A DNA stretch of 33,481 nucleotides from a virus, in the UHGV virus genome UHGV-0034894; one strand, given 5' to 3'. Positions 879 through 33,199 of the stretch are shown here, in pieces. Position 1 is the first letter of the stretch. Each line of letters opens with the position of its first letter. Position numbers and translations under genes: made by a program. The notes under the pieces are model-generated. The model saw only the letters and a list, made by a program, of their open reading frames with translations, was not told the origin of the DNA and ran no database searches.

Positions 879-1724
879 GTGAATAAAAATCCCTGGGATA
901 TTCCAGCATGGCACGCTCTGGGCCGAGAAGCATCTTTAGTTACACAGCTCATTGGTTCTGGGGCAACAGCCATAGGTAAAGCCAATTATGCAGACAAAAT
1001 AGGTGAATATTACACAGCATTTTTTGGGCTTTCTGTAGGTTTTGAGAGACTTGCTAAACTAATACTTGTTGCACACTATGCCATTGAACACAAAGGGAAA
1101 ATGCCTGATGAGAATATTGTAAGAAAATTTGGACATAAGCTCATTGAATTAACCAACGAGGTTGATAGTATTTCTAAAAAAATGCAACTATCTCTGAGAT
1201 ATTCACGTCCTACACATAAAATTACCTACAAAATACTTGAATGTTTAGATTCCTTTGCTGATGCCCGACGGGGACGTTACGCAAATTTCTCCTCATTAAG
1301 CAGCCCCAATTTAACCAATAATGAACCTATTAATAAATGGTGGGGAGAAGTAGCCGAGAGTATCCTTGAAAAACATTATTATTATACAGTTGAACAAAGA
1401 CGTGTTGAAGAAAATGCTAGGTTTATCAATGCCACTCTTTCACCGTATACAACGGTCATGTATATGAATGAAAGTACCAACATTATGCAAGACCTTATAT
1501 CAGCCTCCATCCGTACTGGACAAAATACCATTGTTCAAAAGTGGGGAAGATTCTATTCTCTTAGCATCGCTCGTTGGCTTGCCACAGTATTAGCAGAACT
1601 GTCTGATATAGCTTCTCATAAATATGGAATAATTAGTTTTTATGGCCTTAGTGAACATTGTTGCAGTTATATAGTTGAAGATAGTTTTTTAAAAAACAGA
1701 AAAATATGGCCACTTCGCCAATAG
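879..1724 (+). CDS. Orphan cargo protein (281 aa), function unknown; candidate accessory/defence gene
   Basis: GTG start with AAAGGA SD upstream; visibly AT-richer than phage genes; convergent with and abutting the truncated invertase; no family recognised. Confidence 0.6.
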   Translation: MNKNPWDIPAWHALGREASLVTQLIGSGATAIGKANYADKIGEYYTAFFGLSVGFERLAKLILVAHYAIEHKGKMPDENIVRKFGHKLIELTNEVDSISKKMQLSLRYSRPTHKITYKILECLDSFADARRGRYANFSSLSSPNLTNNEPINKWWGEVAESILEKHYYYTVEQRRVEENARFINATLSPYTTVMYMNESTNIMQDLISASIRTGQNTIVQKWGRFYSLSIARWLATVLAELSDIASHKYGIISFYGLSEHCCSYIVEDSFLKNRKIWPLRQ

Positions 1725-1728
1725 TTAA

Positions 1729-2043
1729 CTAGAAAATCTGCATAAGGGGGAGAAATCCCCCACCTGTAATAACATAACTACTAAAATTAACACCTTGTTC
1801 GCACAACTCCTCCACCAGCACGACAAGATGCCGCACACTGCGCCCCAGCCGATCCAGCTTCCAGACAACCAGAGTGTCACCTGCCGATAATGTCCTGAGC
1901 AGTTTTTTCAGTCCCGGCCTTTCGGACTTTGTACCGCTTATCTTGTCTTCAAAAAACAGCTCGCATCCTGCACAGTTCAGCGCATTACGTTGTAGATCTG
2001 TGTTCTGGTCATTTGTTGACACACGTACATAGCCAATAAGCAT
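1729..2043 (-). pseudogene. Truncated Gin/Hin/Pin-family serine DNA invertase (N-terminal about 90 aa only)
   Basis: MLIGYVRVSTNDQNTDLQRNAL...TLVVWKLDRLGRSV matches the invertase catalytic N-terminus; reading frame diverges after GVNF and stops; no other frame continues the invertase. Confidence 0.8.
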
Positions 2044-2097
2044 AGTGGATCCCTCTGACAAAAGCAGGAATGATGCCATTTGCTCGTTATTTCTGCA

Positions 2098-2123
2098 TTT
2101 TCATAAACGTTGGTTTGGGAGAA
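2098..2123. repeat. hix/gix-like 26-bp invertase crossover site (distal)
   Basis: TTTTCATAAACG-TT-GGTTTGGGAGAA; inner half-site plus core are the exact inverted copy of the site at 3920-3945. Confidence 0.7.
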
Positions 2124-2468
2124 GCGGCAAAACGGAATGTGGGCACAGGAGATAATCAGATACCGGATATGGGAGCATTCGCTTCTGGTTCGGGATGGTT
2201 CAGGCTACCAGGTGGATATATTGTTCAGTTTGGCACTTTTTCAGGAAACACGACCCGCTTTATCAGTGGACACTTCCCTATACCATTCCCTAATCAGCCG
2301 ATGATTTCAGTCAGTGTTATGTCTGATGCCGTTCAGTCAGACCCGTCGAATCCTGCCCCGCAGGTTTTGTCTGTAAATTTTGAACATATCAGTAATTCAG
2401 CGTGGCGTGTGGCAACCAGTGATATCTCACAGCAATACAGATTCAGTTATATTTCGATAGGACGGTAG
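2112..2468 (+). CDS. Alternative tail-fibre variable C-terminus (Sv'-like), silent in this orientation
   Basis: Starts at the crossover core in frame (GLGE...), no own start codon; inversion would fuse it in frame to the constant part of the fibre gene. Confidence 0.6.
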   Translation, partial: GLGEAAKRNVGTGDNQIPDMGAFASGSGWFRLPGGYIVQFGTFSGNTTRFISGHFPIPFPNQPMISVSVMSDAVQSDPSNPAPQVLSVNFEHISNSAWRVATSDISQQYRFSYISIGR

Positions 2469-2470
2469 AA

Positions 2471-2911
2471 ATGCAGAAATATATTTTCAGTGCCGATAAA
2501 AATGCGTTTTTCCCTGTGGAGCTTAAAATCGCTTATCAGGAATCCGGCGAATGGCCCGATGATGGAATCGAAATTGACGACACTGTTGCTGCCGAATTTA
2601 TGAAGGAAGCACCAGAAGGAAAATACAGAGGTGTCATCGACGGAATGCCTGCATGGATTGATATTCCACCGCCAACTCATGAGGAACAAATTGCCGCAGC
2701 CGAACTGAAAAAGCAGCAATTGATTAATCAGGTCAACGAATACATAAACAGTAAGCAATGGCCTGGTAAAGCGGCGATTGGTCGCCTGAAAGGTGAGGAA
2801 CTGGTGCAATATAATTTGTGGCTGGATTATCTGGACGCACTGGAACTGGTCGATACTTCCGGTGCGCCAGATATTGAATGGCCTACGCCTCCGGCAGTTC
2901 AGGCCAGATGA
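2471..2911 (+). CDS. Tail fibre assembly protein, alternative copy (U'-like)
   Basis: Tfa-like C-terminus (...[20 protein letters not shown]); sits inside the invertible segment. Confidence 0.7.
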   Translation: MQKYIFSADKNAFFPVELKIAYQESGEWPDDGIEIDDTVAAEFMKEAPEGKYRGVIDGMPAWIDIPPPTHEEQIAAAELKKQQLINQVNEYINSKQWPGKAAIGRLKGEELVQYNLWLDYLDALELVDTSGAPDIEWPTPPAVQAR

Positions 2912-3479
2912 CATCCGGCGCGGTGCTGGTATCTGTTGCCGTCACCGCGTCAATGTAATCCAGCACAGCGTTAAGCCGGGTTGTTTCTGCCTGCGTCAGT
3001 TTCCGCCCGGCTTGTAATTTCAGCTGAATCAGACTAATGGAAGCCATTGCTGCATCAATCAGTGACTGGCGCTGTGCTTCTGACGCGTCTACTGCGGCGC
3101 TATGCTGTGCCTCGGTATCCGTCACCCATTTCTCACCATCCCATTTATCGTATGGCGTTAACGGTGAAAGCGTGACATAACCATCTTTGATGGCACCGAT
3201 ATAATCCACTGTAACAGCTGCGCCATTTTCGATTGAGTAAACAGTCTCATTGCGATGGTCCTCTTCATGGCTCCATCCCTTACCTGTAAATACAGCCACT
3301 TTTCCCGGAATGTTTTCGCCAGGGTTAATTCCAGTGGAACAGGCGGGCATACTTACGCCAGTATTAATATATTCATCAGACCAGCCCGTATACTCAGATG
3401 TTTCAGCATCATAATAAAAACAACGCATATCGCCCGGCACTGTAGCCAGTCCATTTTCATCAAAAATTGGGGTCATCAT
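2883..3479 (-). CDS. Tail fibre assembly protein (U-like), expressed orientation
   Basis: Tfa-like conserved C-terminus (...[22 protein letters not shown]); directly downstream of the fibre gene. Confidence 0.75.
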
Positions 3480-4288
3480 TTAGCCCTCACCAGAAAGTTA
3501 AATGCAATATTTCGCGGTCTGACGGCAACAAAATTCACACCATCACCCACAGAGTTACTGGTGAAATTAAATCGTGAAAATCCTGGCTGATTTCCGGCGA
3601 TACCATCATGAAAATTAATTGTGTGGCCCGCACCATCGCCTATATTCCCGGCAAACTGAGAAAAGTTTGTAGCTGCCTGCCAGCTTAATAATTCGCGACC
3701 ACCGTCTGCACCTCGCCCGTCATCCCAGATACGAATGAAATCACCGCGGGCTTCAGGTAATACCAGCGAAGGAAACACTTTCGCCAGCACAGGGTAATCA
3801 GAGGCAGAAAATTTCGCCCCGTTAAACTTCAAAAACACCATACCGGACCAGCTGTCGATGACAGAATTTGGCATTGCAGCGGACGGCCAGAAGAACGGAA
3901 CGCCAATAGCTGGGGCACCTTCTCCCAAACCAAGGTTTTCGAGAGCTGTTTTCACCGTGCCGTCCGATTTGATATCGCCAAACGGATTCTTGCGGCTCAG
4001 GTATTCAACAGCAAACCCCGATCCCAGCAATTCAACAAAACCGGGCAGATCACCATTATCAAGCACATCCCGTTGCGTTTTATCACTTACAAACTGGGCC
4101 AGAGCTGCAGCAATAAAGCTGGCCTGCCGAATAACCTTATTGACTTGCGCACTGGAGGCTTTCCCTGCTGTAAATCCAGATAAAAGCGCGGGCAACGCTT
4201 CCCATTCCTCCTGCGATATAACATTGGCATTTCGATCCGTTGCAAACGCTTTAAAGTCATTTTTCGCCATCAGAGTAATACTCCCCAT
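3476..4288 (-). CDS. Tail fibre protein (constant N-terminus plus variable C-terminus)
   Basis: Fibre-like motif [17 protein letters not shown]; crossover site lies inside the gene; position after baseplate genes; start uncertain. Confidence 0.75.
3920..3945. repeat. hix/gix-like 26-bp invertase crossover site (proximal, inside the tail fibre gene)
   Basis: TTCTCCCAAACC-AA-GGTTTTCGAGAG resembles the hix consensus; encodes ...LENLGLGE... in the fibre. Confidence 0.7.
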
Positions 4289-4950
4289 GCTCCTACATCA
4301 AAACCACTGATGAATTCGTTATCCATATCAAAACCAAAAAATTTTGAGCCTTCCGATGGGGTTTCCACCGAAGGTGTTTCAATGCCACCCGCCCATACCC
4401 CGGCGGCTTTTACTGTGAGATACCCCTGTTTAATTGCCGCAATTAACTCACGCGATACATCTGAAATATCAGTATCAGGAAAGACCCAGACCGATATCGT
4501 CATGTCCTGGTTATCGACTATCTGCATTCGCAGCCCGGATCCTGCTGTTGCCGCGTCAAGAATTGCCGGAAGCGAATCATTCCGTCCGTCCCAGTTATTA
4601 ATCGCAATCTTCGCTTTAAGAATGACACGATAAGTTTCATCGCTGAGATACATGTATCCTGAATCAGGATCGTATGGTCCCTGCCATACCCCCTGATCAT
4701 ATCCAAGCCCGTCGGTATCCCAGCTGAAATAGACACCTGAGATAGGCTGGCTGACAACACGGCTACGTCCGATCCACAATCCAAGGATGTCAAGTTGCAC
4801 ACCAACCGCAGAGTCAATATCAAATGCACTAATCAGCCCTCTGGTGGCAGCCGCAACATCAATAAGTGGCCGGGTCATCAGATCAACATGCGCAAGAAAT
4901 TTAGGTTTGGTGGCGTGGTAGTTCGTGATTAGTTCGGTGTATTTGCTCAT
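4270..4950 (-). CDS. Tail/baseplate protein, Mu gp48 / YmfQ-like
   Basis: Position between baseplate J-like gene and tail fibre; resemblance to YmfQ-type proteins from memory. Confidence 0.55.
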
Positions 4951-6146
4951 GACTCCACCGTTATAACGATATTTTTCGGGGTACAGGACGCAGATTCGTT
5001 GTATCTGATATCAATGTTTGATGACGACAAAGCCCCCGGGGATTTCCCAATCGTCAGTTCCTGAATATCGTAATAGCGTGCATTCCCGCCACTCACCACG
5101 CCAAGATTCGCCGGTGAGTAAATGCGACTTAAAAGGACCGAATCACCAATCATCAGACTATTGATATAGTCGGAAATAGCCTGCTGGATCTGCTGCCCTA
5201 TCTGTGAGGTATAACCCGTAAAAACTTTTAATTTAATCAGGGCATAAACAGGCACATCACTGGAACGCGAGAATTTGATTACATGGGGATTGCCGTATTT
5301 ATCCGGAACCGTAACGGATGTTGTACCGTGAGTGGCTGTCCCCTGGCCTTTATTCCCTCTGATAGCCTGAGCAATATCCGTTACATCACCGCCATCCACA
5401 ATTACAGCAACAGAGTGTGGCGGTAACCCGTTACCGTCCTCCGAACCAGTATCGTTTTCATAGAGTTTGTGGCGGGTTACACCGGTAACATTAGAAACAG
5501 CACCATCCAGTGCTTCAAATGGGGTTATTGATGGCAACGCAACACTTTGCGACTGGCGGATACGTAACTCAGCGTCAGTTTCTGCCGGAGTGCCCACAGT
5601 GGCTGCAGCAGGATTGGTTACCGAAACCCAGCCACGGGTTGGCGTATTAATTTCAGTGATAGTTCCAGCCAGCGCCGCCACTGCACCACTGACGGAACAT
5701 GTTGCGGTCACCATCACTGTACCATCCACGCCTACCACCACTGAAGCAGGCAAACGCCATATCACATTATTACTGTCTTTCACGCTGCCATTAATGATGG
5801 TTGTTCCGGCAGTTCCTGTAAGAAGCAAATCAACCGTAGAGTTCGTCGCGCCTTTACGTGAAATACCATTTATTTTCACGTTACAGGTCAGTGCAGCCCC
5901 ATAGCCGGTTGCCGGTGAAAAACAGTTGTAGACAGTTATCGCAGTATTATTGGCATCATGAATCGCCAGCGCCATCAGAGCCACCATCTGGCCGTCTTTG
6001 CTGTCCGGTTCGAGGTAGGCATCACTGCCATAAATCTGCTGAAAATAGCTAATCAGGGTGCTGAGTATCGTCTGATAATCAGGCGCACTGATCCCCTCCG
6101 CGGTTACCTTTGCAGATAAACCGAGAGAATCAAGGTTCAGAGCCAT
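4947..6146 (-). CDS. Baseplate J-like protein (Mu gp47-like)
   Basis: Size and synteny; J-like sequence character. Confidence 0.65.
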   Translation of the reverse strand: MALNLDSLGLSAKVTAEGISAPDYQTILSTLISYFQQIYGSDAYLEPDSKDGQMVALMALAIHDANNTAITVYNCFSPATGYGAALTCNVKINGISRKGATNSTVDLLLTGTAGTTIINGSVKDSNNVIWRLPASVVVGVDGTVMVTATCSVSGAVAALAGTITEINTPTRGWVSVTNPAAATVGTPAETDAELRIRQSQSVALPSITPFEALDGAVSNVTGVTRHKLYENDTGSEDGNGLPPHSVAVIVDGGDVTDIAQAIRGNKGQGTATHGTTSVTVPDKYGNPHVIKFSRSSDVPVYALIKLKVFTGYTSQIGQQIQQAISDYINSLMIGDSVLLSRIYSPANLGVVSGGNARYYDIQELTIGKSPGALSSSNIDIRYNESASCTPKNIVITVES

Positions 6147-6499
6147 TACGCCTCCGATGTAACAGTCGTTATTCCATAAAGAGTGTCGATTTCAGCGGAA
6201 AACATGACACGTCGGGTCGTGGTATCCAGCGTCGTATTGAAAGAGAGGATTGATTTAACGCCCTGCGTTTCGAGGATGCGCTTACGGATCGCCAGGTTGT
6301 AGGTTTCCGGCTTCTGCTTACCGAGTACGGACTGGATCCACGGAGTCCCCTCGGTGGTGTCGAGAAACCATTGCCCATACCACAATTCGAATCGCGTTTT
6401 TACCGCCTGCGCCACGGCCTCCGGTGAGTTAATCAGCCAGGTGTCATCACCGCTGCCAAAGGTGTAATCGCCATCGGCGTCTTCACGTCTGTATCGCAT
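6146..6499 (-). CDS. Baseplate wedge protein (gp25/W-like)
   Basis: Small protein translationally coupled between spike and J genes. Confidence 0.5.
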   Translation of the reverse strand: MRYRREDADGDYTFGSGDDTWLINSPEAVAQAVKTRFELWYGQWFLDTTEGTPWIQSVLGKQKPETYNLAIRKRILETQGVKSILSFNTTLDTTTRRVMFSAEIDTLYGITTVTSEA

Positions 6500-7251
6500 C
6501 AGTTTACCCCGTCGGTACTGCTTCCACCGCGCTGAACACCACCATGAGTGTGCGTATCATCGATTGGCTTGCCGTTAGCCTTCACGCTCCCCAAAAACTC
6601 AACAGCACCAGTGATTTTTGAAGCCACACCAGAAACCACAGACCCCACCATGCCCCCCATCCAGGTTAACAGGCCATGAATGGTTACTTTCTCAGAAAAA
6701 TCAGCCAGGGGGGCAACCACATCAAGCCCCCCCGGAGCGACAATTTTAATTTTCCTGGTATCAGGATTAAGCTCAAAATAGGTGCTGCCGTCGTCACTAC
6801 GCAACTGTGTGGCACTGGTATTAATACCGCTAATCTTCCTAGCCTGCGACTGGGGACCGACAATACAAAACGCATCCGATAAATCATGCATTCTGTCATC
6901 AACCGTCTCCTGTATCCCGCCGCTCTGCCACCAGAAATCAATACAACGATCGGCAAAAACGACAAGACACTCATCCCCAGCTTTTACCGGAAAAGTCAAC
7001 GTACAGCCTCCGCCGCGCGGGAATACCACTGGCACATCCACCAGCAATGGGTAATTTTTGGTAATGCGGTTACCGTCGTTATCCTTTTCAACTGACCGGA
7101 TAGCTGGCTGCACAACCGCCGTCACCGCGTCAGGATCGAATGACTGAATAATGCCAGGCAAGGCGACACGGATCTGGTTCTTTGTTGTTTCCCGTTCAGA
7201 TTTAAATGTTTCGGCAAGATCGCCACTGCGGGTCTGGTCAGTTACTGCCAT
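6499..7251 (-). CDS. Baseplate spike/assembly protein V-like
   Basis: gpV-like N-terminal OB region and C-terminal DDTHTHGG apex motif. Confidence 0.7.
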   Translation of the reverse strand: MAVTDQTRSGDLAETFKSERETTKNQIRVALPGIIQSFDPDAVTAVVQPAIRSVEKDNDGNRITKNYPLLVDVPVVFPRGGGCTLTFPVKAGDECLVVFADRCIDFWWQSGGIQETVDDRMHDLSDAFCIVGPQSQARKISGINTSATQLRSDDGSTYFELNPDTRKIKIVAPGGLDVVAPLADFSEKVTIHGLLTWMGGMVGSVVSGVASKITGAVEFLGSVKANGKPIDDTHTHGGVQRGGSSTDGVN

Positions 7252-25341: not shown

Positions 25342-25764
25342 TTATGCCGCCGGGCAGCTCCTTCGCAAAGTCCTGATAGCCTTAGGCTTTGACTGAACTG
25401 CTTGATCCATTTCCAGAACCACGTCCAGCATAGCCAGGCAGCCGTCGATAAATCCCTCTGCAGCCTGGAGCCTCTTCAGAACTTGAGTGTGTGATACGCC
25501 GAGCTTCACACCCATAGCCCTCACAGGCATCGCCTGGATGTAATGCCACTCAAGGAGCGTACACAGGTACGGATCTTTTTTCTTCAGGCAGTTCATAGCA
25601 GAGCTGATGATCAGACCGTCATTGTCACTGCACTTCAGCCGCCCGGCTTGCGTTGCAGGTAGCAGATTCTTAAATCCAGCGGAAACAGGTGGATAGTAGA
25701 CACTGCAACCTTCGCTCGCAGCCCAGCCCCCCCATCGCTCTAAAACCAGTCGAATATCACGCAT
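25342..25764 (-). CDS. Late-gene antiterminator Q-like protein
   Basis: Position immediately upstream of late leader/terminator and lysis cassette; resembles Q-like proteins from memory. Confidence 0.55.
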   Translation of the reverse strand: MRDIRLVLERWGGWAASEGCSVYYPPVSAGFKNLLPATQAGRLKCSDNDGLIISSAMNCLKKKDPYLCTLLEWHYIQAMPVRAMGVKLGVSHTQVLKRLQAAEGFIDGCLAMLDVVLEMDQAVQSKPKAIRTLRRSCPAA

Positions 25765-25789
25765 AGCTCTGACCTCTACGTTTTGCTAC

Positions 25790-26080
25790 TTACCGTTCAT
25801 CTTTCATTTTGAGGTTAGAAAGATGTTTAAGCCGCTGGCAATACGCTTTCCAGTAAGCCTCAGAGTGCATCGGGTGCTCGATATCGCTATACAGCCATAC
25901 ACAGTCGTCGCGCTGAGTTACCGGCGGTGGCGCCAACACATCTCGAGTGGCCTGCGTTAGTGCTCTTTTGAAGAAAAAAGCCTCCCCTAAGGGCTGGTAG
26001 TCTCTGTTGAATGCTTCCCAAGCCCCCTCAGCTGTTTTGCGGATACCGTAAGGCATACATTGGCGGAATATCTTTGACAT
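25790..26080 (-). CDS. Hypothetical protein (96 aa) between ori-like region and Q
   Basis: ORF and synteny only. Confidence 0.4.
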   Translation of the reverse strand: MSKIFRQCMPYGIRKTAEGAWEAFNRDYQPLGEAFFFKRALTQATRDVLAPPPVTQRDDCVWLYSDIEHPMHSEAYWKAYCQRLKHLSNLKMKDER

Positions 26081-26129
26081 CGTCGTATCCTCATTTAGTT
26101 ATTTGCTAATTTTTTCAAGTTAATTTCCG

Positions 26130-26392
26130 GGTGACGGCTAGGTGACGCGTAATTACATATCCGTCACCTGCTGCAAAGCGCGCCATATAAGGCCTGAAGA
26201 TGTTTTAGGTGACAGGTGACGGTTGATTTTAGTTCTCTATATATAAGCGATCGTATAATACCTAAAATACACACTATCGCGTATATAGTTTTAAATTCTG
26301 CCGTCACCTGTCACCTTTAGCACATTTCCCATTGTTTTATATATACTTTTTAAGGTGACGCTTAAGCGTTTTGCCGTCACCTAGCCGTCACC
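26130..26392. repeat. Iteron cluster: ten GGTGAC hexamers in nested inverted-repeat symmetry around an AT-rich core; candidate replication origin
   Basis: Perfect 18-bp IR (26130-26147 / 26375-26392), perfect 15-bp IR (26208-26222 / 26301-26315), single copies at 26163-26168 and 26353-26358, about 78-bp AT-rich centre. Confidence 0.7.
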
Positions 26393-26395
26393 TTT

Positions 26396-28657
26396 TTACA
26401 ATCCAGATTGCAAAATTTCGCAAGATTTATATATTTCGCGCAATTCTTCGTTGCTGAAATCGTTATTTTTTACAAGAATCCAAATCCTATATACAAACCC
26501 GTCAATTTTTACGCGTACGGGTTCCCGCTTTGTTCTTTCTTTCAAAATGCGAGTAATATGCTTCTGGTTAATTTCTACATCCATTCCTGCTTCTGCCAGT
26601 ATTGCGTTAACAATTTGTTGATAAGTCATTGCTGGCACAGGCGGATTATCCAGGATTTCAATAAGAGCAGCCTCCACATCGCTCTTATTGCTTTCAATCA
26701 TCAGAAGGCGTTCTTTCGTCTCGGGGGCGCGCTGCCAGTTAAAGCGAGACAGGTCAACGCCCATCAGATACCAGTACACCTGGGCGATAAAGTCGCTGTC
26801 GCTTAGCGCACCGTACAGGCTGGCGTAATGCTCTTCAGTTGCGGCGAAGTCAGGGCCCCCCAGCACAGCGATACGTCGGTCTTCCTCTGGCAGCGCCAGC
26901 GCATCAAAGTGGTTGGTGTAGAACAGAAAGCCGGTGTATATATCCATCGTTTTTTTGCTGCCATATTTGCGGTTCACTTCAAACCGTGGTTCTGTCAGCA
27001 CGTCACGGATCTTATCGTTCACCTCATACCGCTTATCATTTTCGCGCACCTCGTCAATGGTGCATAGAAGCGTATTGTACAGATAGTCATGGAACTGGTT
27101 ATCGCACAGGATCTTCATGCGAGTACGAGCACAGTTCCACGGACCAAGCACGCGCTCCATTAACTGGCTGACCCATCCTCTGCCCGTACCATGTGCGGAA
27201 GCCACATGCAGAATAGAAATCGGGCATCGACGCTCCGGACGCTGAACCATCCACCCCAGACGGGCGATGAAAAACTCGCGCTGCCAGGCATCAGGTACCA
27301 GATACGCCATATGATTAAGGAACGTGGACACCTTACTTGTATCCGCTGTACGTGGATGCTCAGGCATATAAAATTCGTTTATCTCAAACCGCCCGTCGAA
27401 ACGCTCGATAATACGTCCCGCACCGGGCTTATAGCCTGTCGTCTCAGCAATCTTCTTATGCCGATGCTCTATCCACCGTTTGGTTGCGGGAGTTGGTTGC
27501 CCTTTCCCTTCTGGCGGGAACTGGTAAGGCGCCATCAGGTTTTTGAACGACTTCATATCCATCATGCACTGATATGGCGGTCGGCTAAGATCACATACCT
27601 GGTCACCCTCGATGACGTAGATAAAGCGTTCCAGAAAATGAGCTGTCATATCTGTATTAATATCGGTAAATTCAGGCTTATCGCCATCTTCAACCACCGT
27701 GAGATCTTCGAACAGGGATTGCGTATAGCCGTAGCCTTCCAGCCAGTCGGCATCAGTAAGCCCCGCATCGGTGTTGTGCATGCTTTTAAAATGTCCCTGT
27801 TCAAATCCCCCCGTCCCTTTTGGGAAATACTTAATGGATGTTTCGCTGCAACCGTTGCTGTATTCTGACTCATCCCGAAACGGTTTCAGATTGCGGGAAC
27901 CATCAGAGCTGACTGACAGAGTCCACCCGTTCGCGTCAAGCCAGTCGGCGACATCATCTGTCGCGGAAGGATCAACACAGGAAAGATCACGCTGACGTCC
28001 TGCACCTGCGGTATAGCTGTCTTTCACGGGTAAGTTATCCGCCAGACGCTGCCACAGGCTTTCGAGCTGTTCAGATGTAATTTTCAGAGGTTCGCCGGGC
28101 AGACCGCAGTCCCACTGAATACGTTCGCCTGCCGGATGGGTACCACAAGCCACAAACTGCTGGCCCTTAGCGAGCAGCTCTATTTGTTTGTTTTCGCCTT
28201 CCAGGCGGTGACCACGTTTACGGTAGTCGCCATCAACAGCAATCAGGTACAGGCATTTATGACTGTCAGCCCGCCAGCGACGTGGCGGAAGTTCCCCCAG
28301 GCATGACAGGATAATATTGCGTACGATCTCCTGCATCCCGGCGTCATTGATATCGCAGTCCAGAGCCACCACCCCGTCGCCAGTACGAACGCAAATACCG
28401 TAATCGGGTTCGTTCGACCACCGGGCAAAATCGTTTTCCGTAACAACATAGTTAGCCCAGTCGGGGATACCAACAACCTTACGTTGGCCATTGTAGCGAC
28501 TGGGGGTTTTGCCGAAATTATGAGACAGCTTGCTATTAGGCGACAGTTCTGCACAGGGATTGGACACCACAGGTAAAAGCCTGTCTGTCATCCCCAACAC
28601 CAGATCGAAGTGGAACCACTCATCGGGCGTAGCTCCCCATGGTTTGTTATCAGACAT
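26396..28657 (-). CDS. Replication protein: AEP-type primase-polymerase N-terminal domain with C-terminal NTPase/helicase-like region
   Basis: 753 aa; DxD-like motif LDCDIND; directly downstream of cro; adjacent iterons. Confidence 0.6.
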   Translation of the reverse strand: MSDNKPWGATPDEWFHFDLVLGMTDRLLPVVSNPCAELSPNSKLSHNFGKTPSRYNGQRKVVGIPDWANYVVTENDFARWSNEPDYGICVRTGDGVVALDCDINDAGMQEIVRNIILSCLGELPPRRWRADSHKCLYLIAVDGDYRKRGHRLEGENKQIELLAKGQQFVACGTHPAGERIQWDCGLPGEPLKITSEQLESLWQRLADNLPVKDSYTAGAGRQRDLSCVDPSATDDVADWLDANGWTLSVSSDGSRNLKPFRDESEYSNGCSETSIKYFPKGTGGFEQGHFKSMHNTDAGLTDADWLEGYGYTQSLFEDLTVVEDGDKPEFTDINTDMTAHFLERFIYVIEGDQVCDLSRPPYQCMMDMKSFKNLMAPYQFPPEGKGQPTPATKRWIEHRHKKIAETTGYKPGAGRIIERFDGRFEINEFYMPEHPRTADTSKVSTFLNHMAYLVPDAWQREFFIARLGWMVQRPERRCPISILHVASAHGTGRGWVSQLMERVLGPWNCARTRMKILCDNQFHDYLYNTLLCTIDEVRENDKRYEVNDKIRDVLTEPRFEVNRKYGSKKTMDIYTGFLFYTNHFDALALPEEDRRIAVLGGPDFAATEEHYASLYGALSDSDFIAQVYWYLMGVDLSRFNWQRAPETKERLLMIESNKSDVEAALIEILDNPPVPAMTYQQIVNAILAEAGMDVEINQKHITRILKERTKREPVRVKIDGFVYRIWILVKNNDFSNEELREIYKSCEILQSGL

Positions 28658-28660
28658 GGG

Positions 28661-28861
28661 TTACGCCTTTTGTCTAGCTGTCACTTCCTGAAAAAGCTTT
28701 TCTATCGCACGTACTGTAGAAAAGCGAGGGTCAGAATGAACCCCGGTGAGAAGCCGACTAATAGAAGACTGCTTCACGCCTGCAATTTCGGCAATTTGGT
28801 TTTGGGTATACCCTGAATCAATCAAGCTTTTGACCATCTCTTGTGGTGTTAGTCCGGACAT
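28661..28861 (-). CDS. Cro-like HTH transcriptional regulator
   Basis: 66 aa with HTH (QNQIAEIAGVKQSSISRLL); divergent from repressor gene. Confidence 0.65.
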   Translation of the reverse strand: MSGLTPQEMVKSLIDSGYTQNQIAEIAGVKQSSISRLLTGVHSDPRFSTVRAIEKLFQEVTARQKA

Positions 28862-29002: not shown

Positions 29003-29677
29003 ATGATTGATACTACCGATATCCTTTCTCAAAACATCAAGTACCTGATGGACAAAGCCAAGATAAGCTCGATAACTGAGCTGGCACGTCGGTTACAACT
29101 GAACCAACCAACGCTACACAGGCTGGTATCAGGAGAGGTGAAAGATCCGAAATACGCAACGTTAAAGCAGATCGCCGACTACTTCCACGTGTCACCAATA
29201 GACCTGGCAGAAAGGAGCCTTCAAGAAATGGAGAAAGAGGACGCGACGGGTATAAAAACGTATATTTCTCTTAGGTTTAATAAAGTACCTGTTTTGGGAA
29301 ACACTCAGCTAGGCGTTGGAGGACTTTGGAGCGACACCCAATATTCAGTAGGTAGCAGTGATGGTTTCATATACTGGCCGACAAAGGATGAAGATGCATA
29401 CGCCCTGAAATGTGTTGGTGATTCAATGATGCCTAGAATCAAAGAGGGTGAGTTCGTAATCGTCGAACCCAACCACGACTACACTCCTGGTGATGAAGTA
29501 CTTGTGGTTACCCGGGACGGTGAGGTCATGGTTAAAACCTTCTTGTTCGAACGCGATGGCCTGTTCCATCTAATGTCTGTAAATGAAGATCATCCACCAG
29601 TCAGAGTACCACGCGAAAACATTGAAAAAATCCATTACGTGGCGGGGATCGCCAAATCCGCGCTACGCATGTACTAA
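29003..29677 (+). CDS. CI-like prophage repressor (HTH plus S24 LexA-like autopeptidase domain)
   Basis: N-terminal HTH; C-terminal GDSM catalytic Ser context and conserved Lys (VMVKTF). Confidence 0.85.
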   Translation: MIDTTDILSQNIKYLMDKAKISSITELARRLQLNQPTLHRLVSGEVKDPKYATLKQIADYFHVSPIDLAERSLQEMEKEDATGIKTYISLRFNKVPVLGNTQLGVGGLWSDTQYSVGSSDGFIYWPTKDEDAYALKCVGDSMMPRIKEGEFVIVEPNHDYTPGDEVLVVTRDGEVMVKTFLFERDGLFHLMSVNEDHPPVRVPRENIEKIHYVAGIAKSALRMY

Positions 29678-30846: not shown

Positions 30847-30996
30847 ATGAAACCTGAACACCTCTATCGACTGACGGGGCGCGATGTTCTCCGTTATCGC
30901 CGTAAAAACTTCGATTTGATGACCGGTCTGGCCGTTGCCACTGCGCTCGGTCTGATCATCACTTTCATTCTCCTTGTAGCGAGGACCACAGTATGA
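30847..30996 (+). CDS. Small membrane protein (49 aa), not in ORF track
   Basis: AAAGGAA SD 9 nt upstream of ATG; basic N-terminus then TM helix (LAVATALGLIITFILLVA); stop overlaps the next ATG (ATGA). Confidence 0.4.
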   Translation: MKPEHLYRLTGRDVLRYRRKNFDLMTGLAVATALGLIITFILLVARTTV

Positions 30997-31895
30997 GTTT
31001 AGAAACCAGTCTCGAACTTAATAATCAACTTCTGGCACAACATAATGCGCTGCTTGAACGTCTTATCCGCACAATGGCATCAGGTATTGTTATGCATCCT
31101 GACACGATTTCACGAGTGCAGGAATGTCGGGATACAGCAACTGAAACTGAAAATATGTCAGCGGCAATGACACTGGATGATCTGGAGTTCAGCGACGTTA
31201 TCGCACTGGCTGGTTTCTACCCAGTAGCCACCCCTATCACAGAAGACATGCTGCAACGTGCTGTTGCCTACCGTGATGCTGAAGGCGATAAACGAGTAGT
31301 TCAGATTGATGCTCTCGACAGCGCATTGCAGGGCGTCAAACGAGCCAGGGCGCTGCTTAAACCTGCTCTCCTGGACCTGTCCCGTAACATCCTTAAGTTC
31401 TGGGACGACCTGCCAACCATCGGCGAGCGACGTGCTTTTGCCGAGCAGCTACTTGATGCACCTGCGGATGGGCGTGATGAAGTTAAGCCGAAAAAGGCCA
31501 GTAACAAAGATGGAGAACGCACGGGGCCGTTTTACGTCAAAAATGTATCCGGCACAGCAGCCAGTGAACTCCACACCTTACGCAAGTTGAACGAGATGCT
31601 GAAAAAAGGCCATATCGAGACCAACCGTGTTGAGTACCTTCAGCTGCAGGAAGAATTTGCACGCAGAGACACAGCAAATTCCAGCCAGAATAATGACGCC
31701 AAAGATGACCATACAATTGATTTCGCGGCACTACGCAAACAAGCTGAAGGGTTGATCCTCCAGTTAGCAAAAGGGGGTTACCGGGCAGAAGCTATTGCAA
31801 TTCTGGAAAAACAGGGAGCCAGGAAACTTGGTGAAGTAACGGATGAAAATCTCGCTGAAGTAATCACCCTGGCTGAAAAAGCACTGGAGGGTTAA
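30993..31895 (+). CDS. Hypothetical early protein (300 aa), likely partner of the downstream nuclease
   Basis: Tight 3-bp spacing to nuclease gene; no family recognised. Confidence 0.5.
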
Positions 31896-31897
31896 TC

Positions 31898-33199
31898 ATG
31901 CCAGACGTTCATGCACAACTTTCTCCATCATCAGCGCATCGATGGATGCGCTGCCCAGGAAGTCTGGCGCTGGAGGCCACACAACCGGATAAAGAAACAA
32001 CTTTTGCAATCGAGGGCACTGCAGCGCACGCGCTTGCTGAAAAAGTTCTACGAAACAGGCAAAGCCACCCGGAACACTACGCCGGATGCAATGTTTCTAT
32101 GTTTCTCGGCTCATACCCCCTTCGCGAAAATCCTGATGATACATCTGGCCCACAGGTGGATGATGAAATGGTCGAAGCCGTTGGCCGGTATGTTGATACG
32201 GTCTGGACTCTTGCACAGAATAATGAACTATTGGTTGAACAACGTGTTGATTTCTCACATATAACGGGTGTGGAAGAATCTTTCGGAACTGCCGACGGCA
32301 TAATCATCGCTGGTAGCGAATTACAAATCCACGACCTGAAATATGGCAAAGGCGTCCGCATTGATGCAGAACAAAATGAGCAACTACAACTGTATGCTCT
32401 GGGTGCTCTCGAACAATTCAGCATGCTGTATGACTTTGAGACTGTAAGATTATTTATTCACCAGCCAAGGCTCAACCACGTTTCAGAATGGTCGTTAACC
32501 GTGCAGGAACTTCAGTCTTTCGGTAAACGAGCACAGGAGGCCGCAACCAGTGCGATCCTTGTTCTCAATATTGCTGAATGCGAAGGCATTGAGACACTAC
32601 CGCTGGAAAACTTCATACCTGGAGAAAAGCAGTGCCGCTTCTGTAAAGCAAAAGCTATTTGCACTGCCCAGAAAATGCAGCATTTACAAACAGCGGCCAG
32701 CGACTTTGAAGATCTGACAAAGCCTGTCAGCGAAATAATCACCAATGCCAGCGCACGTGTACCTCTGTTAACCATTGAGCAGCTTGCGGAGATCTATAGC
32801 CAGGCCGACTTTATTGAGTCCTGGCTAAAGGCAGTACGGGACCGGGTTCACAATGAACTCAATGCCGGACATCCGGTACCGGGGTTTAAACTGGTAACAG
32901 GAAAACAAGGTAACCGGGCCTGGAGTGATGAAGAGGCAGCTCGCGCACTTCTGAAGGACCAGTTCAGGTACAAAACTGAAGAAGTATTCGACTTTAAACT
33001 TATTAGTCCCACAAAAGCCGAAAAACTTATCAAAAAGGCCAGTCCACGCCGTTGGTCAAAAGTCGAGGCACTGATAACACGAGCTGATGGTAAACCAACC
33101 GTCGTTCCCGAGTCAGACCCACGCCCCGCACTCAATATCAACCCTGTAAATGATTTCGACGACGTATCCGACGATACGCTAACCGCAGACCTCATCTGA
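31898..33199 (+). CDS. PD-(D/E)XK nuclease with Cas4-like 4-Cys cluster (DUF2800-like phage exonuclease)
   Basis: N-terminal [14 protein letters not shown], catalytic-like D...[13 protein letters not shown]-terminal [10 protein letters not shown]. Confidence 0.7.

Follow-up and report, generated by a model that had tools for sequence, protein, structure and literature searches.

An ordered cluster of GGTGAC hexamers occupies positions 26130-26392 of the window (the whole stretch of DNA analysed, 33,481 nt of UHGV virus genome UHGV-0034894), and the question that it raises is whether it is an origin of replication served by the primase-type protein encoded next to it, or a complex operator. 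The window is a temperate E. coli phage. Over 25700-26900 its sequence has 100% identity to four induced prophages (vB_EcoM-606R2 plus three relatives); these four, all induced from E. coli, are the only close relatives in the isolated-phage collection. Genes for large and small terminase, head, baseplate, tail-fibre, holin, endolysin, Rz, CI, Cro and Q are present in the window and the matching phage record, and in both, the gene annotation from cro to Q shows neither an O-like nor a P-like gene. The genes surrounding the cluster are as follows.

29003-29677, + strand: gene for a CI-like repressor
28661-28861, - strand: cro-like HTH gene, head of the rightward early operon cro - initiator - proposed origin - orf96 - Q
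26396-28657, - strand: initiator gene, 753 aa, with an N-terminal PrimPol domain, an SF3 helicase part (DUF5906, NrS-1-like) and a C-terminal winged helix
25790-26080, - strand: 96-aa ORF, directly downstream of the proposed origin and on the origin side of Q
25342-25764, - strand: gene for antiterminator Q, downstream of the 96-aa ORF on the same strand

The gap between the initiator gene and the 96-aa ORF is 315 bp, and holin, endolysin and terminase genes lie beyond Q. Existing annotation of the replicon genes reads 'hypothetical' or DUF5906 and nothing more. The 96-aa ORF had no family match in Pfam, PHROG or NCBIfam, and NCBIfam likewise assigned the 753-aa initiator to no family. Scans of the whole window with Rfam (gathering thresholds) and for tRNAs gave zero matches, and hence no sign of a structured RNA.

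The ten GGTGAC hexamers reported in the original prediction were all recovered at exactly their predicted coordinates, five starting on the + strand at 26130, 26141, 26208, 26215 and 26354, and five on the - strand at 26163, 26303, 26310, 26376 and 26387. They form two sets of five.

26130-26392, unstranded: whole iteron array, the proposed origin, with the order > > < > > (centre) < < > < < on the window + strand
26130-26220, unstranded: gene-distal half-origin with five iterons, 26130-26135(+), 26141-26146(+), 26163-26168(-), 26208-26213(+) and 26215-26220(+)
26303-26392, unstranded: gene-proximal half-origin with five iterons, 26303-26308(-), 26310-26315(-), 26354-26359(+), 26376-26381(-) and 26387-26392(-)

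The last iteron (26387-26392) is 3 nt from the initiator stop codon (26396-26398), and the array thus lies directly 3' of the gene. The expected nesting of perfect inverted repeats was borne out for the outer pair, which is perfect over 18 bp (26130-26147, GGTGACGGCTAGGTGACG, versus 26375-26392), whereas the length of 15 bp given for the inner pair requires correction to 16 bp, also perfect (26207-26222, AGGTGACAGGTGACGG, versus 26301-26316). The single copies, at 26163(-) and 26354(+), are a mirror pair, as had been proposed, and share the symmetry centre of the array; every mirrored pair is centred on the same point, 26261-26261.5. Inside each half-origin, the centre-to-centre spacings are 11, 22, 44-45 and 7 bp, the long one being 45 bp in the gene-distal half. 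The repeat unit is longer than the hexamer and can be written a-GGTGAC-G-G-n-T.

GGTGAC occurs 34 times in the whole window, compared with 13.8 +/- 3.7 times in shuffled sequences. The ten copies within 263 bp compare with 0.19 predicted from the rate outside the array (Poisson P ~1e-14, or ~5e-10 once multiplied by all start positions), and the clustering is not due to chance. A second cluster resembling the crr of P4 was sought in the full 42.7-kb phage record, which contains the single cluster only. Five lone copies of the 8-mer GGTGACGG occur outside the array, at window positions 2939, 3119, 7119, 8065 and 18241, all on the - (coding) strand and scattered in structural genes, where about one is expected for a random 8-mer. 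This excess is probably a codon effect.

The AT-rich centre of about 78 bp in the original prediction corresponds to the 78 bp between the inner arms, or 82 bp between the inner hexamers. The centre and the adjoining gene-distal spacer contain the following elements.

26221-26302, unstranded: central segment, the proposed DNA-unwinding element, 82 bp with 70% A+T against 50% for the whole window
26240-26287, unstranded: conserved inverted repeat within the centre, 26240-26254 (TATATAAGCGATCGT) versus 26273-26287 (ACTATCGCGTATATA), 87% complementary
26169-26207, unstranded: gene-distal spacer, 54% A+T, with a conserved TAAGG (AAGG invariant) and a small possible hairpin

Nearest-neighbour energy gives the centre a low stability (z = 3.1), placing it in the lowest eight, at about eighth place, among distinct 80-bp regions of the window; other stretches are less stable still. 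The family consensus of the central inverted repeat is CTATATACG ... CGTATATAG, and its columns are among the most conserved outside the iterons in the alignment of relatives. The gene-proximal spacer (26316-26353) is 79% A+T, and the half-origins are thus asymmetric in their long spacers. In the gene-distal spacer the hairpin stem shows compensatory changes, being GCC-N6-GGC in the E. coli types and CCCTT-N7-AAGGG in the Serratia/Erwinia types, and the TAAGG/hairpin element may be a priming signal. Scans for DnaA boxes, IHF and Fis sites and GATC gave one DnaA box with one mismatch, where 0.6 are expected, and no conserved DnaA box or IHF site; the single box is not conserved because it falls in a variable part of the alignment of relatives. 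The lack of conserved host sites is consistent with independence from host initiators.

The 753-aa protein, assigned to PHROG 1156 (DNA primase), includes a PrimPol primase domain at aa 75-185 (Pfam PF09250) and DUF5906 at aa 487-595 (Pfam PF19263, E = 6e-14). When all solved structures were searched by sequence, the helicase domain of the NrS-1 primase-helicase (6k9c, a solved SF3 helicase domain) was the only meaningful match, covering aa 456-659 (E = 4e-8). The C-terminal part, which lies nearest the array, is made up as follows.

26402-26632, - strand: C-terminal winged-helix domain, aa 676-752 (b1 676-678, helix 679-690, helix 698-709, b2 714-718, b3 721-727, helix 736-752)
26477-26524, - strand: specificity wing, aa 712-727 (EPVRVKIDGFVYRIWI), the one patch of the protein that is hypervariable, in which residues 715, 721-723 and 725 track the iteron class

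In the structural model, where the winged-helix domain is predicted with confidence, the variable patch is its beta-hairpin wing. Elsewhere in the protein, the Walker-A lysine is replaced by arginine (HGTGRGW, aa 489-495; window 27173-27193, - strand), with GTGRG aligning to GTGKG of NrS-1. GTGRG was found in 47 of 47 full-length DUF5906-type homologues retrieved, while VapE-type chimeras have a canonical GCGKS. Arginine at this position would be unusual for an active P-loop motor, and the substitution raises the question of whether, and by what means, the predicted helicase hydrolyses ATP.

The intergenic region containing the array was detected in 45 of 5426 complete E. coli genomes (~0.8%), in one copy each and always in the chromosome, and 15 of these copies are just 69-77% identical to it. 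The full-length initiator gene was likewise found in 45 complete E. coli genomes, once per genome and only in chromosomes. The replicon family also occurs in Salmonella, Citrobacter and Klebsiella. In a first alignment of six E. coli copies with the window, the ten sites are kept in place, and the motif changes from one phage to another with all ten sites changing together (GGTGACGG, GGTGGCAG or GGTAACAG). Further loci were gathered from viral and genome collections via the initiator protein; homologues were collected with the full-length query, as the C-terminal 159 aa retrieved gene fragments only.

At 28 loci from E. coli, Serratia, Erwinia and Izhakiella, with protein identity down to 68%, the sites have the same positions and orientations, > > < > > (centre) < < > < <, starting 4, 15, 37, 81 and 88 nt after the stop codon on one side of the centre and at 176, 183, 228, 250 and 261 nt on the other. 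The central segment is 80-85 bp long and 64-80% A+T in all 28. The 11-, 22- and 44-bp spacings are whole multiples of about one helical turn, to which the 7-bp pair is added. Because the spacings within each half are invariant (+/-1) across genera while the length of the centre floats between 80 and 85 bp, the data suggest that each half-origin is a rigid assembly unit.

The 28 loci fall into five motif classes (GGTGACGG, GGTGGCAG, GGTAACAG, GGTGTCAG and GGTGACAG), with one class at essentially all ten sites of each locus; 268 of the 280 sites are exactly equal to the hexamer of their own locus. A Xenorhabdus locus (59% protein identity) has sites at the same coordinates with a sixth motif, GGTTGCAG. 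The variation is confined to iteron positions 4, 5 and 7, and G1, G2, T3, C6 and G8 are fixed. In more distant relatives from Arsenophonus (64%), Limnobaculum (46%) and Avibacterium (36%), iteron pairs flank an A+T-rich centre of 81-99 bp, and the gene order cI-cro-initiator-array-Q is common to these three and Xenorhabdus. A lack of hexamer conservation in related phages with the same initiator had been named as an outcome that would refute an origin; the opposite was found, the ten sites being retained in position and orientation in every relative examined.

Several loci merit separate mention. E. coli STEC435 (NZ_CP129348.1, locus 1689-6576; L003) carries an Stx2b-converting prophage with a PrimPol/DUF5906 replicon of the GGTGGC class in place of lambda-type O/P genes, the stx genes lying just downstream of Q. 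In E. coli O121 (NZ_CP119441.1, locus 2681-3378; L004), IS1A is inserted just downstream of a shortened Q, probably disabling late-gene expression there. At IMG/VR UViG_2654587792_000007 (~4150-4329; L013), the initiator C-terminus is frameshifted with stop codons in the winged-helix region, and the ten GGTGAC hexamers are intact; the prophage has probably decayed recently. L006, L007, L022, L028 and L031 each have one or two iterons that are degenerate.

The class of the iterons was then related to the sequence of the initiator. Overall identity among seven E. coli initiators is 97-99%, and the positions that differ are concentrated in aa 703-746 and sort the proteins exactly by iteron class; outside the wing hairpin of ~15 aa, initiators of different classes are up to 99-100% identical. 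Among 29 proteins, pairs of different class with backbones at least 95% identical share only 62% identity in aa 700-733, whereas pairs of the same class with backbones no more than 85% identical share 78%. The residues most informative on iteron class, by mutual information over the 29 proteins, are 722, 715, 721, 723 and 725, located on both wing strands (aa 714-718 and 721-727). In contrast, the putative recognition helix (aa 698-709) varies without regard to class, KLLREK occurring with both GGTAAC and GGTGGC.

Each of the six iteron classes is paired with one wing motif, on backbones 59% to 100% identical; the wing of the GGTGGC class, for example, is EAVKLKVDGMTVRMWM. The same wing motif accompanies the same iteron on backbones of 64%-100% identity, as with [MI][GA]YRFW and GGTAAC in E. 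coli, Serratia and Arsenophonus. Thus, the iteron sequence among the relatives changes only when the wing of the winged helix changes.

Part of this covariation could come from co-inheritance of a single recombination cassette, because the wing codons adjoin the array at a distance of ~85-130 bp. Taken further, the array might bind some other factor, or be a packaging or recombination site, with its match to the initiator C-terminus reflecting hitch-hiking of adjacent DNA, given that wing codons (26477-26524) within ~130 bp of it would usually move together with it in recombination. Linkage alone, however, fails to explain the same substitution at all ten sites, and it fails to explain a pairing that persists on backbones and spacers diverged to 59-69% identity (64-69% for backbones combined with diverged spacers). 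The segment between wing and array, the last 24 codons of the gene, is conserved. A host factor would not account for six specificities in a single host species. More than 2.6 kb separates the array from the terminase genes, whose alleles are not needed to predict the motif, and there is no other motif cluster in the phage. We therefore regard this explanation as very improbable.

The products of the neighbouring genes were also considered as partners of the iterons. CI and Cro are 99-100% identical between the window and L005, and between L004 and L006, yet the iterons differ within each pair. The 96-aa ORF is 100% identical in the window, L002 and L003, again with different iterons, and Q alleles 85-89% identical occur with different iterons and do not track class. 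CI, Cro, the 96-aa ORF product and Q were hence rejected as the iteron-binding partner.

These dissociations bear directly on the complex operator that the original prediction had named as an alternative, in which a regulator bound to the array would control the 96-aa ORF and the late-gene activator Q, as an operator or transcriptional roadblock with no role in replication. Operators typically contain symmetric repeats, the array stands on the transcribed strand with the early promoter region on one side and Q on the other, Q directly follows the array in the distant relatives, and an origin-bound initiator may itself act as a secondary roadblock. However, besides the failure of CI, Cro, the small ORF and Q to follow the iterons, scanning 25700-26700 for promoters and terminators gave no terminator and a sole promoter-like match, at 26408-26435 (+), within the initiator gene, leaving the array with no promoter-like or terminator-like site. 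Ten sites in 263 bp with an A+T-rich centre, beside an SF3 helicase gene whose wing covaries with them, are a better fit to an origin, and a pure operator is accordingly disfavoured as highly unlikely.

A centromere-like partition site of an extrachromosomal form of the phage was weighed as well. The model would be parC of plasmid R1, in which, as described in PMC2241845, two five-iteron sets flank a central region, and the array does have two sets of five short repeats on either side of a central segment. The likeness is superficial: the repeats of the array are mirror-symmetric and not two direct sets, and the genes adjoining it (initiator, 96-aa ORF and Q) include no ParA/ParM or ParR/ParB-type gene. 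Moreover, 45 of the 45 E. coli copies are in chromosomal prophages with none on a plasmid, and the only protein segment that covaries with the repeats is the winged helix of the helicase itself. A partition function is therefore hardly credible.

We conclude, with a probability of roughly 85%, that 26130-26392 is the vegetative replication origin of a lambdoid temperate phage, recognised by the 753-aa protein encoded immediately upstream. This assignment is favoured because the array begins 3 nt past the initiator stop codon and is in the same place in every relative; because the ten-site architecture and A+T-rich centre are kept in the 28 loci and Xenorhabdus; and because the ten sites switch together and covary with the initiator wing. 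It is further favoured because the initiator has PrimPol and SF3-helicase domains, because characterised origins of SaPIs and E. coli PICIs share the layout, and because a distant DUF5906 protein on a Proteus plasmid also precedes a comparable array. Comparison with relatives thus lends strong support to the predicted iteron/unwinding-element origin served by the adjacent primase-type initiator.

Under the origin assignment, induction would lead to the rightward early transcript and to synthesis of Cro and then the initiator. The C-terminal winged helix of the initiator would bind the ten aGGTGACGGnT iterons in the two mirror half-origins, each with five sites at fixed spacing, and assembly of the SF3-helicase part would follow on both half-origins, two opposed hexamers being the most likely form. 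The 82-bp A+T-rich centre would then be opened without DnaA or a helicase loader, and the N-terminal PrimPol domain would prime the exposed strands, giving bidirectional replication. Specificity would reside in the wing hairpin (aa 715, 721-723 and 725) reading iteron positions 4, 5 and 7, while the invariant part of the winged-helix domain would read the invariant G1, G2, T3, C6 and G8. We infer binding, hexamer assembly, melting, priming, origin firing and bidirectionality at 26130-26392 from the sequence comparisons.

The closest known counterparts are the Rep-ori systems of SaPIs and other PICIs (SaPIbov1, SaPI1 and SaPI5, and EcCICFT073 of E. coli), which have the origin directly after the 3' end of the initiator gene (PMC9371898, PMC6092414). 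These origins have 6-12 short iterons in two sets flanking an AT-rich centre, with at least two per side and in opposed orientation (PMC9371898). Rep, an SF3 helicase that loads itself and in some cases has a primase fused to it, recognises the iterons through its C-terminal winged helix, and each Rep allele is matched to its own ori. Neither binding nor melting by Rep requires ATP, and Rep binding and rep-ori dependent plasmid replication have been demonstrated (PMC9371898, PMC6092414). Likewise, the phage array is immediately 3' of the initiator gene, here and in the relatives, and has ten iterons, five per side, with inner pairs > > (centre) < < and an 82-bp centre of 70% A+T. The phage initiator is an SF3 (AAA+) helicase by its DUF5906/NrS-1 match, albeit with arginine for the Walker-A lysine, its C-terminal winged helix is the predicted iteron-recognition domain, and initiator and iterons occur in allele-matched pairs. 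All the defining features of the SaPI/PICI origin type that can be tested in sequence thus appear to be present in the phage array.

Unlike a PICI, which is a phage-dependent satellite of ~10-15 kb without the full virion and lysis set, the element with this PICI-type origin is a complete lambdoid phage. The phage module also differs in its location between cro and Q, in the PrimPol plus DUF5906 (NrS-1-like) composition of its initiator, and in the 5 + 5 layout with fixed 11/22/44/7-bp spacing, which is specific to the phage family.

In satellite phage P4, a single polypeptide, the alpha protein, has a primase, an SF3 helicase and a C-terminal domain for origin binding. It resembles the phage system in recognising 8-bp repeats, and the P4 record annotation places crr, with 5 + 5 type-1 repeats, immediately 3' of the alpha gene. 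No sequence similarity between the initiator and P4 alpha was detectable (BLASTP E = 0.32; hhalign probability 0.2%). P4 needs two cis sites ~4.5 kb apart (ori and crr), whereas the phage has one cluster, and crr is a direct 120-bp duplication, whereas the phage array is mirror-symmetric around its AT-rich centre.

With lambda O and ori-lambda, the locus shares the lambdoid genome context and iterons beside an AT-rich region. In lambda-type phages, too, the initiator and iteron specificities are matched among related phages. O-origin complexes of Stx phages are the subject of PMC7466680. In lambda, however, the iterons are inside the O gene, while the phage array lies between genes and has mirror symmetry. 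O, which is no helicase, depends on P and host DnaB, while the phage initiator has helicase and primase domains of its own. SV40 large T and papillomavirus E1 are SF3 initiators with inverted-repeat sites beside easily melted DNA and act as head-to-head double hexamers. Mpox E5, a poxvirus primase-helicase fusion, is described as a double hexamer in PMC12137749. The likeness of large T, E1 and E5 to the phage initiator is that of the SF3 class, and the origin-binding domains and hosts are different.

The replicon is not described in the searchable literature on DUF5906 with iterons, on lambdoid primase-helicase origins or on the four matching phages. That initiator and iteron alleles are matched at AT-rich origins is well established as a principle, and it is the replicon family itself that is undescribed. 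The present assignment would provide a precise origin and initiator for a lambdoid replicon family that includes at least one Stx2b-converting prophage. An origin layout described as unique to PICI satellites is also seen in complete phages, the phage family being a counter-example, which bears on the source of satellite replication modules and on the cross-use of initiators between satellites and phages. Initiator alleles that are nearly isogenic but differ in their wings, each with iterons to match, make up a natural series of unusual tidiness, with the specificity switches confined to the winged-helix hairpin; they are a ready set for studying how such a hairpin reads DNA and could be used for building orthogonal replicons.

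A broader proposal can be advanced only tentatively, and its overall correctness is doubtful. Three to five residues of the wing hairpin (715, 721-723 and 725) alone, and not the recognition helix, might retarget a near-identical 753-aa initiator to at least six iterons, the likely driver being selection for orthogonal replicons among co-resident prophages and origin-mimicking satellites. In addition, the loaded origin might act as a roadblock or timer coupling the onset of replication to the late genes, an idea raised because transcription that starts at the early promoter has no other evident route to Q than across the origin.

The N-terminal third of the initiator, containing PrimPol (aa 1-323/330, 50-97% identical), is fused to a VapE-type helicase half in many Enterobacterales prophages (loci L033, L036, L062 and L090; proteins P0061 and P0072-P0135). 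These fusion genes are followed by symmetric iteron arrays around an A+T-rich centre, the iterons being GGTTGAGTA in L033 (~10 copies), GGTGGTTCCA in L036 and TGGTACA in L062. The origin design is therefore common to different initiator classes, and these prophages also argue against a layout restricted to PICIs.

The distant DUF5906 protein on the Proteus plasmid (28% identity over aa 341-753) is encoded by the 8.9-kb circular pW47-1 of Proteus mirabilis (NZ_CP104987.1; L098). Ten GGTTACAA repeats at 4097-4365, ~300 nt downstream of the DUF5906 gene, are arranged > > > < < > > (centre) < > < with an 81-bp centre. Because this small replicon also has a tape-measure gene, it may be a satellite or phage fragment and not an ordinary plasmid.

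The leftward operon of the phage past cI (window 30993-33199, + strand) includes the gene for a 433-aa exonuclease (PHROG 69), and in the full record ON470579.1 (33247-42743) it continues with genes annotated as DNA polymerase, nuclease, TIR-like protein and DNA helicase. Given the exonuclease, polymerase, nuclease and helicase genes, the phage may therefore supply much of its own replication machinery besides the primase-helicase.
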